Below, piece by piece: positions 2,238-29,978 of a stretch of DNA of 30,259 nt (its first letter is position 1; each line of letters opens with the position of its first letter). The notes below the pieces were generated by a model. It did not search any database, was not told the DNA's origin, and saw nothing but the letters and a program-made list of their open reading frames with translations. Origin of the DNA: Anaerolineae bacterium (lineage in GTDB: Bacteria > Chloroflexota > Anaerolineae > Aggregatilineales > Phototrophicaceae); contig DAOTTW010000226.1 in NCBI GenBank assembly GCA_034437615.1, positions 1 to 30,259 on the forward strand, given 5' to 3'. The translations under genes were made by a program, and so were the position numbers.

Positions 2238-2324
2238 GGCGGCCAACGCCGCCCCGGACGACAAGAATGGCGTCTCTACGCGAGACGCTGACCAACCGTA
2301 GGGACGCAGCAAGCTGCGTCCGCC
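2238..2324 (+). repeat. Family-1 REP/BIME-like composite intergenic element, copy A
   Basis: Leader GGCGGCCAACGCCGCCCCGGAC (2238-2260) is near-identical to the leaders at 3674-3693 and 21606-21628. Then AAGAATGGCGTCTCTAC with hairpin GCGTCTC-tacgc-GAGACGC (2270-2288). Then GTAGGGACGCAG-caag-CTGCGTCC-GCC (2298-2324), a perfect 8-bp stem. It lies between two plus-strand genes. Confidence 0.6.
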
Positions 2325-3673: not shown

Positions 3674-3750
3674 GCGGCTGACGCCGCCCGGACGCCAAGA
3701 ACGGCGTCCCTACAAAGCATCGTTCGCAGGGACGCGCCGAGGCGCGTCCG
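3674..3750 (+). repeat. Family-1 REP/BIME-like composite intergenic element, copy B
   Basis: GCGGCTGACGCCGCCCGGAC leader. Hairpin GGACGCC-aagaac-GGCGTCC (3690-3709) followed by CTAC. Second hairpin GCAGGGACGCGC-cgag-GCGCGTCC-GC (3726-3751). AAGAACGGCGT recurs at 3784-3794, at the flotillin stop. It lies between convergent genes (LysM + and flotillin -). Confidence 0.6.
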
Positions 3751-3793
3751 CAAGCCGCCGCCACATTTCTGCTAGGCTGCACAAGAACGGCGT

Positions 3794-5359: not shown

Positions 5360-5421
5360 GTGTTGTTTAGCCTCGTATCATAATGTTTTTCTGTGTGTGC
5401 TTGTTGTCGTGTCCTGTCGTA

Positions 5422-5469
5422 TAGGGGTTTAGCGTGCCAAACCCAGGGCTTAGCACGCTGAGCCACTAC
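5422..5469 (-). repeat. Family-2 double-hairpin REP-like element, degenerate copy (opposite orientation to the 29930-29978 copy)
   Basis: TAGGGGTTTAGCGTGCCAAACCCAGGGCTTAGCACGCTGAGCCACTAC. Its reverse complement aligns base for base with 29930-29978, with only a few substitutions, some of which create mismatches or wobbles in the stems. It lies in the nfeD-floT intergenic space. Confidence 0.65.
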
Positions 5470-5504
5470 GACGCTATTGGCTCAACTTCATAGCTGATTT
5501 AATT

Positions 5505-8189: not shown

Positions 8190-8215
8190 CAGGGGCGCTG
8201 CATTGCGCCCCTACA
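8190..8215 (+). terminator. REP-like GC-rich hairpin downstream of rpsP (GCAGGGGCGC-tgcatt-GCGCCCCTAC)
   Basis: 7-bp perfect stem GGGGCGC/GCGCCCC with a TGCATT loop, flanked by a GCAGG head and a CCTAC tail. No U-tract. A near-copy (GGGCGC-gatgcatt-GCGCCC) is at 19201-19220. Confidence 0.45.
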
Positions 8216-8220
8216 GCGGG

Positions 8221-8306
8221 TTTACATCTTACATCCTTGCATCTTTACATCTTGCATCCTTATATCCTTGCATCTTTACATCTTTACATCTTTACATCCT
8301 TGCATC
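8221..8306 (+). repeat. Tandem array of about 11 copies of an 8-bp unit (consensus TTACATCT / TTGCATCC)
   Basis: Read directly: TTTACATC TTACATCC TTGCATCT TTACATCT TGCATCC TTATATCC TTGCATCT TTACATCT TTACATCT TTACATCC TTGCATCC. It lies between rpsP and the KH-protein gene promoter. The spurious ORF 8187-8582 overlaps it. Confidence 0.85.
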
Positions 8307-8363
8307 CGACAAAGCCGACACGTCTACGCCTGCTTCGTCCTTCATCTCGATTTAACTGTAATG

Positions 8364-9434: not shown

Positions 9435-11552
9435 ATGTCCTCCGTTGAAGACATCAAGAGCCGCTTAGACATCGTGGATTACGTCCAGCAACACGTGCCG
9501 GACCTGAAGAAAGCGGGCCGCAATTACAAGGCGTGTTGCCCCTTCCATAACGAAAAAACCCCCTCGTTCGTCGTCAACCCGGAAACGCAGACGTGGCGCT
9601 GTTATGGGGCCTGTAGCGAAGGCGGCGACATCTTCAGTTTTGCGGAAAAAGTCAATGGCTGGACCTTCACAGAGGCGCTGCAATCGCTGGGCGAATTGGC
9701 CGGGGTGGAGGTGCGCAAGCAATCGCCACAGCAAAAACAAGAGGCCAAGCACCTCGAAAAACTACGCGGCATCCTGAAAACCGCCGCTGATTGGTATCAT
9801 CAGCATTTGCTGAGCGACAAAGCAGAGGCCCGCCAAGCCTACCAATACCTGACGCAAAAGCGCGGCTTTACGCATGAAACCATCGTGCGCTTTCAGATTG
9901 GCTACGCGCCGCAGGGCTGGACGAAAATGCTAGAGGGCCTGACGAACCTGGGCTATCCACAGGAGGATGTGCTGGCGGTTGGCCTGGCATCGCAGAACGA
10001 AAGCGGGCGCACCTACGACCGCTTCCGGGAGCGCATCATGATTCCCATTTACGATGGACTCGGCAACCTGTGCGGTTTTGGTGCGCGTGCCCTGAAGCCC
10101 GACGACAACCCGAAATATCTGAATTCACCACAGACGCCGCTATTCGACAAAAGCGGCACGCTGTTCGGCTTGCATGAAGCTAAGCGCGGCATCCGTGACA
10201 CGGGTGAGGTCGTGATCGTTGAAGGCTATATGGATGTGATTCAAGCGCATCAGGCCGGGTATACGAACGTGATTGCACAGATGGGCACAGCACTCACTGA
10301 GCCACAACTGAAGCAGATCGTGCCGAAATACACGCAGAAGATTATCCTGGCGCTGGATGCCGACGCCGCCGGGCAGAACGCCACCCGCCGCAGCCTCGAA
10401 GTGGCACAACGCGCACTCTCCAGCGATAGCAGCGGCCAACTCAACGCCGATATTCGCATCCTACGCATTGAGGACGCAAAAGACCCGGACGACGTGCTGC
10501 GCGAGACACCGCAAAAATGGGCGGATTACGTGCAGCAGGCGCTGCCTGTCGCGGATTTTCTGATTCAGGTGGAGATGGCCACGCTCCCGGATAACCCGAC
10601 GCATCAGGAGCGCCGCGCCGCTGCTATGCGCGTGTTGCCGCTGCTGACCGCCGCTGAAGACAGCCTCGCACGGCAGGATAACCTGCGCAAATTGTCCATG
10701 CGCCTGCATATCCCGCTTGAGGATTTATGGCTGTGGGTGGAGCAGAACAAGCGCAAGCAGGCTGCACGTCGGCAGCGCACTGCACAGCAAACACAAGCAT
10801 CACAACAGCAGCAGCAGTATCAAGAGGCATCCAGCGACAGCAGCGAGGAACCGCCCTTCATGGCCGGGCTGGATGATGACAACGCTGACAACGGTGCGGC
10901 GGCGGCGGCGCACAACACCCATGATCTGACGCTCGACCAACGGGCCAGCAGCCGCGCCGCCGAAGGCTATTGCCTGAAGAACCTGCTGGCATCGCCGGAC
11001 TTGCTGTATGACATCAATCGGCTGTTGCGGGAACTGGCGGGTAATGACCGTGCGCTGCGTGGTGGGCCGCTGGCGTCGTTCGGCGTTGAGGATTTCAGCC
11101 ATGCCGATTATCGCGCCCTGATGGCGACCTGGCTTGAGGCACTCGGTCAAGATCGGCTTGAGCCGCTGGAATACATGCGGCAAACGTTAGACCTGGCGCT
11201 ACAGACTGAACTGGATGACCTGCTGCTGGACGAACGCCACGAATTACAGCGCTCGGTGCGGCATCGCTTCTCGGCGCAAATGCAGGAGATCATGAAAGAA
11301 TATAACCGTATGTCGCGTCCGGGTATTAATTACGATGCGGATGTCTGCCAGCGTGTGCTGACCGTGCGCCAACAGCGCCTTTTGCGCGAGCGGCAGGAAA
11401 TCACCTTCCTGCTGCGTGAATCGCAGGAGCAGCAGGACGCCGACGGGGAACGCCGCTATTACACACAGCTTGGCCCGTCGATACAAGCAGAGCGCCTGCT
11501 GCATCGGGAGATCAAGCGCCCTGCCAGGCCAGCACTAGTACGTTTTGGCTAG
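9435..11552 (+). CDS. dnaG: DNA primase DnaG
   Basis: CHC2 zinc finger ([26 protein letters not shown]). TOPRIM domain ([29 protein letters not shown]...[14 protein letters not shown]). Followed by rpoD (macromolecular-synthesis operon arrangement). Confidence 0.95.
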   Translation: [705 protein letters not shown]

Positions 11553-11761: not shown

Positions 11762-13531
11762 ATGAGTAACGACGACCTACGCAATGCGATCAACGCCTTC
11801 AGTGACAACTCAACCAGTGACGAAGAGACCTCTTTGCTGCGCAAGATCAAGAATTTGCCGAAAGACACCGTCGCAGAGGAGAACGAAAACGAAGAGGATT
11901 TCAGCGAAGACGATGCTATCGGTGATGACGTGAACCGCGAAGATGCCGACAGCGAAGACGACGAGGCATACGACGAAGAAGACTTAACCGGTCTAGCGCT
12001 CGCAGATGACCCGGTTCGTATGTACCTCAAGGAAATCGGTCAGGTGCCGCTGCTGAATAGCAACCGCGAGACCCGGCTCAGTACCCAACTGGCCGCCGAA
12101 AACCTGCTGCAAGAATTAACAGACAAACTCGCCAGCCTGGAACGCTTTGGCAGTGAGGGCGCACCTGATAAGGACGCGGCCAAAGGCAAAAAGGCCAACA
12201 AAGAGGCGCGTTCTGTAAAGGACAAGGCATCTAAGGCTGCTGCGGTCGTGAGCGGTGAACAGGCGGCCAATGGCACGGGCGACGGCCAACAACCTGCGCC
12301 GCTGCCGAATGCTCTGGACGTGACGCGCAGTGCTTATCTCTATCTGGAGGAAAAATGGCAAGCTGCCCTGCAAACGGCTGCTGAACTGGAAACCGAGCCA
12401 CCCGACCTGCGCGAACTGATTGACGAGATCGAAGCAACAAACAAAAACTGGGATCAAGACGGCGATTCCTACATGCGCAAATACTTCAAGCAGGGTGATT
12501 GGGGGCGCGATGCAGAGTGGACGGCCTACGTCAGCGAATTGTTTGACGTGGTCCATGCGCTGCATCTGATCCCGCCCGTACAGCAGATGCAGCTACGCGG
12601 CCACTATCGCAAGCACAACACGCTGCCGGGCTTGAATGAATTTACAGCGTGGCTAGAAGACGACGAGGACCCCCTAGAAGAAGCCCGCTTTGCCCATGAG
12701 CGCGTCGAACAGCGTGCAGAAATGGCCGTCGAAGCGCTGACGCGGGCTAACCTGCGCCTGGTGGTCAGCGTGGCGAAGCGTTACATGGGGCGCGGCATCG
12801 GCTTCCTTGACCTAATTCAAGAAGGTAACCTGGGTCTGCTGCGTGCTGTCTCCAAGTTCGACCATACGAAGGGCTATAAGTTCAGCACCTATGCGACGTG
12901 GTGGATTCGGCAGGCCATCAGCCGCGCCATAGCCGACCAAGCCCGCACGATTCGCATTCCGGTGCATATGGTGGAGACGATTAACCGCCTGATGCGCGTG
13001 CAGCGTGAATTGCTGCAAACGTTGGGCGCAGAGCCAAGCGCAGAGCAGATCGCGCTGGAAATGGACATCCTGCCAAAAGAAGACGTGGACGCCATCAAAT
13101 TCCTGCGCAAAGAGGGCGCACACCTGGACCCCTCGTTGCAGCGCAAGCTGCGCCGCGCCGCGCAGAAAGTGCGCAAAATCATGCGCATTAGCCAGGAACC
13201 GATGAGCCTGGATATGCCCATCGGCCAAGAAGACAGCAGCCAACTCGGTGATTTTATCCCTGATGACAACATGCCCGGCCCGGTGGATTCAGCCAGCCGC
13301 CAATTGCTGAAAGAGCAAATTAGCTCCGCGCTGGGTGTGCTCAGTGACCGTGAGCGCGAGGTGCTGCAAATGCGCTTCGGCCTGATGGACGGCCAAGATC
13401 ACACGCTGGAAGAGGTCGGCAAGTATTTCGGCGTGACGCGAGAGCGCATCCGGCAGATCGAAGCGAAGGCGCTGCGTAAGCTGCGGCACCCTACCCGGAG
13501 CCGCCAACTACGTGATTACCTTGAGATGTAG
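11762..13531 (+). CDS. rpoD: RNA polymerase primary sigma factor (sigma-70 family, group 1) with acidic N-terminal region
   Basis: Region 1.2 ([16 protein letters not shown]). Region 2 ([37 protein letters not shown]). Region 3 and region 4 HTH ([29 protein letters not shown]). N-terminal Asp/Glu-rich low-complexity stretch. Confidence 0.95.
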
Positions 13532-15518: not shown

Positions 15519-15576
15519 GATGGATGCTCTCTATATCAGGGTGTGGGGATTGGCTATTGTGCGCTTGTAATTGCAA

Positions 15577-15847
15577 GGCAGGGGCGTGCCCCTGCCAGAT
15601 TGATTGTCCAGGCTGCGTATTTGCGTATTGACGGGCGGATCATGATCTGACCCTGTACAATCGCATGATGGTAACGACTCAGCCCTCACCCCAAACCCCT
15701 CTCCCGAACGTGCCTTTGGCACTGGGAGAGCGGCTTTTAACAGCCTGCTTCCCCCTCTCCGTTGTTGTCTGGGTATGGTGAGAGAGGGAGATCGAGGAGG
15801 GGGTGAGGGCAAATTCGCGGGCAAAATAGGCCTACCTGAGTCGTTAC
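15577..15847 (-). promoter_or_regulatory. Structured intergenic region between the substrate-binding and permease genes: GC hairpin plus long nested inverted repeat
   Basis: GGCAGGGG-cgtg-CCCCTGCC (15577-15596). GTAACGACTCAG (15671-15682) pairs with CTGAGTCGTTAC (15836-15847). CCCTCACCCC (15683-15692) pairs with GGGGTGAGGG (15800-15809). CTCTCCC/GGGAGAG and GTGCC-ttt-GGCAC nest inside. ORFs 15531-15851(-) and 15775-16317(+) here are CT/GA-rich and spurious. Confidence 0.45.
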
Positions 15848-19163: not shown

Positions 19164-19182
19164 TGCTAGCACTGTGCTAGCA
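19164..19182. promoter_or_regulatory. 19-bp near-perfect palindrome TGCTAGCAC(T)GTGCTAGCA, candidate operator
   Basis: Its reverse complement differs at one central base. About 170 nt upstream of the 19352 start, in a 350-bp non-coding gap. Confidence 0.25.
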
Positions 19183-19200
19183 GCACAAACGGCATGGCAA

Positions 19201-21605: not shown

Positions 21606-21690
21606 GGCGGCTGACGCCGCCCCGGACACCCAATTGGGTGTCCTTACGGTTCACAGCGGTTTTGTAGGGACGTGCAATGGCACGTCCGCC
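21606..21690 (+). repeat. Family-1 REP/BIME-like composite intergenic element, copy D
   Basis: Leader GGCGGCTGACGCCGCCCCGGAC. Hairpin GGACACCC-aatt-GGGTGTCC (21624-21643) followed by TTAC. Second hairpin GTAGGGACGTGC-aatg-GCACGTCC-GCC (21664-21690). Stem cores differ from copies A and B but remain perfectly paired. Lies between a convergent + gene and the GT2 gene. Confidence 0.6.
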
Positions 21691-29929: not shown

Positions 29930-29978
29930 GTAGGGGCTTAGCCTGCTAAGCCCTGGGTTTGGCAAGCCAAACCCCTAC
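29930..29978 (+). repeat. Family-2 double-hairpin REP-like element, intact copy
   Basis: GTAGG-GGCTTAG-cctg-CTAAGCC-ctg-GGTTTGG-caag-CCAAACC-CCTAC. Two perfect 7-8 bp stems are bracketed by complementary GTAGGGG...CCCCTAC ends. Lies 31 nt after the stop of the preceding gene. Confidence 0.65.

Follow-up and report, generated by a model that had tools for sequence, protein, structure and literature searches.

Contig DAOTTW010000226.1 of an Anaerolineae bacterium was analysed over its entire length of 30,259 bp (the window). It carries housekeeping genes including ffh, rpsP, dnaG, rpoD, rho and the opp operon, and its intergenic share, amounting to 15%, harbors GC-rich hairpin repeats that raise the question of what they are and how they came to be dispersed. 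An earlier note on this DNA had described three composite sites of paired hairpins and likened them to repetitive extragenic palindromes (REPs) and bacterial interspersed mosaic elements (BIMEs). This reading stands. The repeats are short, GC-rich and perfect palindromes with a conserved tetranucleotide head, mostly GTAG, at one end, and they are located extragenically and downstream of genes. They form inverted pairs in which REPs of alternating orientation are joined by short linkers (spacers of 12-18 nt in the composites A to D described below and of 1 nt in the pair at 29930-29978), and they resemble hairpins flanking genes for REP-associated tyrosine transposases (RAYTs) in related genomes. 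We consider it likely that the elements are GTAG-class REPs, present as tail-to-tail heterodimers, head-to-head dimers and singletons, which were spread by a RAYT.

The composite sites and the repeat family in the window

Direct reading of the sequence located the three sites at 2238-2324 (A), 3674-3752 (B) and 21606-21690 (C), in agreement with the earlier note except that site B, which starts at 3674 as given there, ends at 3752 and not at 3750. All three share one plan, in which a GC palindrome of 14-16 nt is followed by an inverted REP unit with CTAC or TTAC at its end, by a spacer of 12-18 nt, and by a forward unit made up of a GTAG or GCAG head and a 20-nt hairpin. The first hairpin of each composite is of the same unit type as the second hairpin but in reverse orientation. 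This arrangement had been called head-to-head; under the published nomenclature A, B and C are tail-to-tail heterodimers, with GTAG on the inside. The parts of the composites are given below, with bit scores from R1, a covariance model built from 11 window-derived units only.

2238-2253, plus strand: leader palindrome of A, GGCGGC-caac-GCCGCC, from its 6-bp hairpin fold
2256-2279, minus strand: left REP unit of A (A1), decayed, GGACGAC..GGCGTCTC-CTAC, with an alternative hairpin at 2270-2288 that takes the CTAC; R1 17.4 bits
2298-2324, plus strand: right REP unit of A, GTAG-GGACGCAGC-aa-GCTGCGTCC-GCC; R1 34.9 bits
3674-3687, plus strand: leader palindrome of B, GCGGC-tgac-GCCGC, from sequence and fold
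3687-3713, minus strand: left REP unit of B, GTAG-GGACGCC-gttctt-GGCGTCC on the minus strand; R1 33.4 bits
3726-3752, plus strand: right REP unit of B (B2), GCAG head, GGACGCGCC-ga-GGCGCGTCC-GCA; R1 33.7 bits
21606-21621, plus strand: leader palindrome of C, GGCGGC-tgac-GCCGCC, from sequence and fold
21621-21647, minus strand: left REP unit of C (C1), GTAA head, GGACACCC-aatt-GGGTGTCC; R1 31.3 bits
21664-21690, plus strand: right REP unit of C (C2), GTAG-GGACGTGC-aatg-GCACGTCC-GCC; R1 36 bits; identical to a REP located 3' of the RAYT gene P0034 in contig L249

A common leader of about 22 nt had been reported for the three sites and is indeed present at each of them, but the exact 22-mer, GGCGGCTGACGCCGCCCCGGAC, occurs at C alone (21606-21627). 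The leader of A departs from it by two loop mismatches (CAAC in place of TGAC), and the leader of B has lost the first G and one C (GCGGCTGACGCCGCCCGGAC), for which reason an ungapped search permitting 3 mismatches returned two matches, A and C, versus 0.00 expected, and missed B. The leader is itself palindromic, with the form GGCGGC-N4-GCCGCC, and reads GGCGGC-CAAC-GCCGCC in A and GGCGGC-TGAC-GCCGCC in C. The statement that all GGAC..GTCC hairpins are perfectly paired does not apply to the first hairpin of A, which is mismatched (GGACGAC..GGCGTCTC) and whose region folds alternatively into GCGTCTC-tacgc-GAGACGC, thereby swallowing the CTAC. In the fold of every composite, three hairpins form independently of one another (z-scores of -2.8 to -5.0). 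A fourth leader-bearing composite, D, was found at L001:3295-3375, about 1.6 kb past the window end.

The three composites that had been counted are real, but they belong to a larger family with about 11 sites in the window in addition to composite D beyond it; the sequence of the host organism that was covered, which comprises the window and overlapping contigs and amounts to about 40 kb, contains about 12 sites and about 18 units (REP families typically exceed 100 copies per genome). The basic unit opens with GTAG, at times with GCAG or GTAA; next comes a perfect hairpin, in most cases of 20 nt, that starts with GG and ends with CC, and then a short GC.. tail. Hairpins are 16-20 nt long with perfect stems of 6-10 bp, and the commonest foot is GGAC/GTCC, with GGGC/GCCC, GGGA/TCCC and GGGT/ACCC also found. 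Eight of 11 strong units have the head GTAG, two have GCAG and one has GTAA. Within the window, the pattern GTAGGGAC-N-GTCC gave 4 matches versus 0.05 expected, GGAC-N(6-24)-GTCC gave 7 matches, all of them intergenic and each with 2-6 inner base pairs beyond the pattern, and head-plus-hairpin units were observed 17 times versus 2.9 times in Markov simulations (maximum 8). Placement within coding sequence would have spoken against a dispersed family of this kind according to the earlier note; all R1 matches in the window at E<0.1 are intergenic, and the first genic match reaches 12.3 bits (E=0.5). A search of the window against Rfam at gathering thresholds gave no match. The further units of the window are the following.

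5417-5473, minus strand: decayed head-to-head dimer with GTAG outside, which copies the 29930-29978 dimer in inverted form and with mismatches; R1 17.8 and 14.8 bits
8190-8214, minus strand: solo unit GTAG-GGGCGC-aatgca-GCGCCC, 18-nt hairpin of the GGGC/GCCC variant, 19 nt past the rpsP stop codon; R1 15.7 bits
11578-11604, minus strand: solo unit GTAG-GGGAGGG-ttatgg-CCCTCCC-GCAAAC in the gap between dnaG and rpoD; R1 32.1 bits
13537-13559, minus strand: solo unit GTAG-GGACGC-catc-GCGTCC, 16-nt hairpin, 8 nt past the rpoD stop codon at a convergent junction; R1 17.1 bits
15573-15599, plus strand: weak or degenerate unit, GCAA head, GGCAGGGGC-gt-GCCCCTGCC; R1 19.5 bits
19197-19223, plus strand: weak or degenerate unit, GCAA head, GGGCGC..GCGCCC; R1 16.6 bits
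27787-27813, minus strand: solo unit GCAG-GGACGCGC-ttct-GCGCGTCC-GCAAAC (the 27790 unit); R1 34.2 bits
29930-29978, plus strand: head-to-head dimer with a 1-nt gap, GTAG-GGGCTTAGC-ct-GCTAAGCCC-t-GGGTTTGGC-aa-GCCAAACCC-CTAC; R1 31.2 and 32.1 bits

The recurrence of the dimer at 29930-29978 as a decayed inverted copy at 5417-5473 indicates dispersal by copying, and the flanks of the 27790 unit match the right halves of composites B and D.

Other repeats are located close to some of these sites. A tandem array with a period of 8 nt (TTACATCC / CATCTTTA, about 11 copies, TRF score up to 137) occupies 8221-8307, directly after the unit at 8190-8214 and between rpsP and a KhpA-like gene, and a second array of the same period (GCTGACAG, about 6 copies, score 45) lies at 2350-2396, just downstream of composite A. 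That two REP sites are each trailed by a short-period array may be a coincidence. In the spacer between oppB and oppA, beside the weak unit at 15573, nested inverted repeats extend over about 177 bp (15671-15847) and resemble a MITE (a miniature transposable element with inverted repeats); the outer pair consists of GTAACGACTCAG and, after 153 nt, CTGAGTCGTTAC, and the inner pair of GCCCTCACCCC and GGGGTGAGGGC. A perfect palindrome at 19164-19182, TGCTAGCA-ctg-TGCTAGCA, shares its intergenic region with the weak unit at 19197 and is of another type, lacking the GTAG head.

Gene context and RAYT genes with matching hairpins

As had been described, composite A is located between co-directional genes and composites B and C between convergent genes. 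Over about 35 kb, repeats occupy all four convergent junctions (three in the window and that of D), 8 of the 11 co-directional junctions of at least 50 nt and none of the three divergent junctions, and the distance from stop codon to unit start is 8-90 nt. Such a distribution is what would be expected of 3' elements that evolved in the host under structural selection, as bidirectional U-tract-independent terminators or as mRNA stabilisers, with no origin from a transposase; a perfect palindrome, which reads alike on both strands, would also suit convergent genes. Nevertheless, we regard this origin as very improbable, as there is no T/U tract, the totals in a terminator scan do not exceed the shuffle expectation, and the non-stem scaffold is common to distant loci (B and D share 91% of it, and 5417 carries a copy of the dimer at 29930). 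In addition, RAYT genes are bracketed by these same units, which stand in inverted order on the two sides, and no G-U pair is found in the first 7 stem pairs although selection at the RNA level would permit it.

The GTAG-class reading is supported by RAYT genes of related genomes. A genome scan with the pattern GTAGGGACG-N6-14-CGTCC returned at least 120 loci from many phyla, with the source genome not among the matches listed. When these loci were searched by tblastn with RayT from Escherichia coli, one weak match only was obtained, and this led to locus L035 from an Anaerolineae metagenome-assembled genome (MAG), in which a homologue of Y1 transposases of 162 aa adjoins a REP pair. The open reading frame matches Pfam Y1_Tnp weakly, with 20.5 bits and below the cutoff of 23. 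Its family comprises 3792 homologues, many of which are labelled RayT by JGI or placed in Anaerolineae/Chloroflexota MAGs by NCBI, and the HUH motif MPNHxH and a tyrosine are invariant in 29 family sequences. Searching the PDB with a profile of the family gave a single match, 4ER8 (TnpA-REP from E. coli), at E=2e-6; a profile was required for this, as a phmmer search of the PDB with a single RAYT sequence gave no match. By motif and profile, the flanked genes encode RAYT-type Y1/HUH transposases, with TnpA-REP as their nearest relative.

GTAG-GG..CC hairpins adjoin the transposase gene in each of six contigs with different family members (L035, L249, L250, L252, L253 and L254). The earlier note had suggested a covariation model of the repeats, and R1 detects such RAYT-flanking hairpins: in six Chloroflexota-type contigs they scored 22-36 bits, L249 and L250 having them on either side of the gene, whereas 24.8 bits was the highest score reached among unrelated, mostly GC-rich contigs totalling 635 kb. 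The gene in L249 is enclosed by tail-to-tail heterodimers in the layout X'-Y / RAYT / Y'-X, and unit X (GTAGGGACGTGCAATGGCACGTCCGCC), which lies 3' of the RAYT gene P0034, is identical to unit C2 of the window in hairpin and GCC tail. Likewise, the hairpin of the 27790 unit has two identical counterparts, one upstream of the RAYT gene P0111 in L253 and the other in L077, from a Chloroflexaceae MAG. The genes P0034, P0111, P0025 and P0249 were considered as the host's own RAYT and rejected, all four being from other samples.

Beside the RAYT gene P0002 in L250, half-hairpins form tandem arrays at 9815-9940 and 10487-10740, each of which closes in one complete REP; the repeats are CGGACGCGCCGTTGCCCAT in about 6 copies and GGACACCCCGTTGGGTGGATGC in about 3 copies, and the arrays look like the product of iterated partial copying at a REP. 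Among the matches listed for the genome scan (loci L005-L124), GTAG-GGACG..CGTCC with extended perfect stems, often in inverted pairs, was seen in MAGs of Verrucomicrobiota, Bacteroidales, Acidobacteriota, Lentisphaerae and Chloroflexota, and this head-and-foot type is widespread over phyla. A scan of metagenomes with the leader pattern gave, among the matches listed, 121 matches in 120 contigs, 119 of which had no hairpin after the leader, and the other two are without REP architecture; all of them look like chance matches in high-GC contigs.

With regard to the host, the closest relatives of its RpoD are about 67% identical and are labelled Anaerolineae, Aggregatilineales or Phototrophicaceae; because of this low identity and these names, the host is considered a deep-branching, uncultured member of the Anaerolineae class of Chloroflexota. 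Its RpoD, encoded at 11762-13531, has 589 aa, whereas most of the listed relatives (about 60-68% identity) have about 520-555 aa, which suggests an insertion or an extended non-conserved region. Near-twin contigs with 99.7-99.8% identity were found in MAG GCA_964530125.1 and in microbial-mat metagenomes. Comparison with these population contigs revealed no single nucleotide polymorphism in any element and, at such identity, they are uninformative on element turnover.

Stem variation, hairpin cores and scaffolds

From the compensatory variation of the stems the earlier note had concluded that selection acts on the structure. The compensation is real; selection is not the only explanation for it. 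Over 11 units and a stem of 8 pairs, all 88 cells are Watson-Crick pairs, a statistic inflated by the fact that the units were partly picked as hairpins; inner pairs outside the GGAC..GTCC pattern, which are not subject to this ascertainment, show the same compensated pairing. Double-sided changes occur in 6 of the 8 stem pairs (24 cells), and variation always affects both arms. None of 500 shuffles was as good, and pairing dropped to 26-44% when the partner was slid by 1-3 columns. In the first 7 stem pairs there are neither mismatches nor G-U pairs and, because G-U pairs are lacking, the exclusively Watson-Crick pairing suggests that palindromy of the DNA is constrained, rather than folding of the RNA. 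A filter imposed by RAYT copying, or a correction templated by the palindrome, would produce the same compensated pattern as structural selection.

The mechanism that we propose draws on the related genomes and on published biochemistry of other REP/RAYT pairs. The units would be non-autonomous single-strand-DNA elements that are made and spread by a RAYT, an enzyme of the HUH/Y1 type. The RAYT would bind the folded hairpin on one strand, would need GTAG and an uninterrupted stem and would cut at a nearby CT. As it would be largely blind to the sequence of the upper stem, upper stems would be free to differ between copies provided that their arms match. Copies would be kept downstream of genes, where insertion is harmless, and those that are transcribed could serve as 3' hairpins. 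The orientation of the repeats is uniform in 8 of 8 cases, as the four leader-bearing tail-to-tail dimers are oriented alike and GTAG lies on the minus strand in all four clear singletons, and this would fit a strand-specific insertion linked to replication.

When composites B and D are compared outside their hairpin cores, 6 of 66 positions differ, 5 of them within 5 nt of a hairpin, whereas inside the cores 10 of 24 positions differ (42%), every stem change being compensated. A similar relation is seen in the trio of B2, D2 and the 27790 unit (4 of 45 positions in the flanks versus 18 of 36 in the cores). Unit D1 combines the stem of C1 (ACCC) with the flanks and scaffold of B, and in other genomes identical cores occur within unrelated spacers. 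Although the sample is small, cores and scaffolds seem to evolve, or to be exchanged, separately. All of this could be accommodated if hairpins were modules that are inserted or exchanged in a conserved, repeated scaffold of leader, spacer and tail, the dimer not being copied as a whole; the route could be a RAYT that cleaves and transfers strands at the feet of the hairpins, or gene conversion with GGAC/GTCC as its limits, and the insertion of REPs into palindromes has been reported (Di Nocera, De Gregorio and Rocco, 2013; PMC3733652). We judge such a modular origin to be improbable: its basis is a single close pair and a single trio, the window contains no leader or scaffold that stands empty, and the same picture would result if unconstrained cores were saturated while a functional scaffold was under purifying selection. 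It is equally a long shot that the cores are exchangeable cassettes which RAYT strand transfer or conversion swaps, or inserts anew, at fixed feet (GGAC/GTCC); if true, this would be an undemonstrated way of diversifying REPs.

Several observations weigh against the preferred reading, in which whole GTAG-class REPs were spread by a RAYT. Apart from the bias in the pairing statistic, no RAYT gene is found in the approximately 40 kb of host sequence, and no insertion polymorphism was seen among the population contigs of 99.7-99.8% identity, for which reason current mobility is unproven. Furthermore, stem diversity is unusually high for a single REP family (10 different stems in 11 units), and the cores are far more diverged than the scaffolds, which would not be expected from simple copy-and-drift.

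Mutation by template switching in quasi-palindromes is well established, and the repeats could be a true REP family in which compensation is mutational, a change in one arm being transferred to the other by intrastrand template switching or repair with no need for structural selection or a RAYT filter, the copies perhaps being fossils without an active RAYT. The Watson-Crick-only pairing in the first 7 stem pairs would fit, as would cores that diverge faster than unconstrained flanks in the trio mentioned above, the decayed copies A1 and 5417-5473 and the lack of a RAYT gene in 40 kb. However, hairpins that are identical, loops included, recur across genomes (that of C2 is found in L249, that of the 27790 unit in both L253 and L077), which argues for conserved discrete variants and not for free local drift, and the need for a perfect stem is already accounted for by published RAYT biochemistry. 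We find a purely mutational compensation doubtful and retain the spread of GTAG-class REPs by a RAYT as the likely explanation.

Comparison with known repeat systems

REP/RAYT systems have so far been characterised mostly in Proteobacteria. The repeats described here extend them to Anaerolineae, beyond Thermomicrobium roseum, the sole case from Chloroflexi in the 2013 catalogue. This work yields a covariance model that is ready for use in the Anaerolineae clade, together with the RAYT family that matches it. In practical terms, the repeats mark the 3' ends of genes, probably add to contig breaks in MAGs, and should be masked or annotated and not be taken for regulatory RNAs. If the decoupling of scaffold and core and the uniform orientation hold genome-wide, this clade would offer a good natural system for studying how RAYTs read their substrates and how REP diversity originates.

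GTAG-class REPs as such are already catalogued, Chloroflexi included. Di Nocera and colleagues (PMC3733652) described GTAG REPs in Proteobacteria, Cyanobacteria, the Planctomycetes-Verrucomicrobia-Chlamydiae (PVC) group and Chloroflexi (T. roseum), with singletons, head-to-head and tail-to-tail dimers, heterodimers of different stems and complementary stem changes within families. In the same catalogue, dimers in some species are 1-2 bp apart, REPs are associated with small GC palindromes and prefer positions downstream of genes, RAYT genes are flanked by repeats (REPtrons), and REPs are inserted in small GC palindromes (T. roseum) and in long palindromes (Anabaena variabilis). With the GTAG superfamily, including GTAG-23 of T. 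roseum and GTAG-17/19 of Opitutus terrae, the repeats of the window share the terminal GTAG next to a short GC-rich stem-loop, as well as singletons, both kinds of dimer (closely spaced ones and heterodimers included), complementary stem changes, the association with small GC palindromes, the location downstream of genes and RAYT genes with flanking repeats. They differ from the catalogued families, so far as the catalogue's text goes, in their sequence, GG(A/G)C..20 nt..G(T/C)CC, and in their Anaerolineae host. In T. roseum the small palindrome is split by the insertion, whereas here it is intact beside the dimer, and in contrast to the few clustered blocks of T. roseum the present repeats are dispersed, with about one site per 3-4 kb.

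The TnpA-Sm transposase of Stenotrophomonas maltophilia requires GTAG and an unbroken stem, tolerates a swapped stem sequence, and barely cleaves a GCAG variant (Corneloup et al., 2021; PMC8266576). Stems that vary and yet are always paired would be explained by a RAYT of this type, since it needs an unbroken stem and tolerates swaps. By analogy, the GCAG-headed units B2 and 27790 may be poor RAYT substrates. The repeats resemble REPSm of the group-3 REPSm/TnpA-Sm system in having a perfect palindrome after GTAG and a short loop (the palindrome of REPSm has 8 bp), but differ from it in host phylum and in a hairpin of 20 nt with loops of 2-6 nt.

REPs of E. coli are imperfect palindromes with a bulge, and its BIMEs contain Y and Z types of REPs and defined linker motifs (S, L, s, l and r), some of which bind integration host factor. 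The repeats of the window are like E. coli REPs and BIMEs in that inverted REP pairs with a short linker are located in extragenic 3' regions, but bulged stems, Y and Z types and the defined linkers were not seen in the window family. An assignment to E. coli-type BIMEs in full was rejected, as the stems are perfect and as neither the spacers (GCATCGTTC and others) nor the leader is related to E. coli motifs. Similarity to the REP doublets forming hairpins (REPINs) of Pseudomonas fluorescens (Bertels and Rainey) exists insofar as the inverted doublet seems to be a unit, repeated at loci A to D and at 29930 and 5417. The repeats were nevertheless not classified as REPINs because their two halves carry different stems, minimum-energy and centroid folds consist of separate hairpins, and cores vary independently of scaffolds.

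Three further classes were considered and rejected. An assignment as intrinsic (Rho-independent) terminators is not in line with the lack of a T tract after the hairpins, and no composite REP unit appeared in the terminator scan, which detected only the solo hairpin at 8190-8214 and the alternative hairpin of composite A. In the case of MITEs, terminal inverted repeats and target duplications are lacking around A to D, and the flanks diverge right outside leader and tail. Integron attC sites were dismissed on general grounds, given the housekeeping context, the lack of an integrase and the lack of a GTTRRRY core.

In insertion sequences of the IS200/IS605 family, such as IS608 and ISDra2, which are about 1.3-2 kb long, a Y1/HUH enzyme reads a folded single-strand hairpin in a strand-specific manner. 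Unlike them, the elements of the window are 27-90 nt long and have no transposase gene between their hairpins. Their likeness lies in the hairpins themselves, which are comparable to the subterminal hairpins of IS200/IS605, and the uniform orientation of the repeats would fit the strand-specific activity of such an enzyme.

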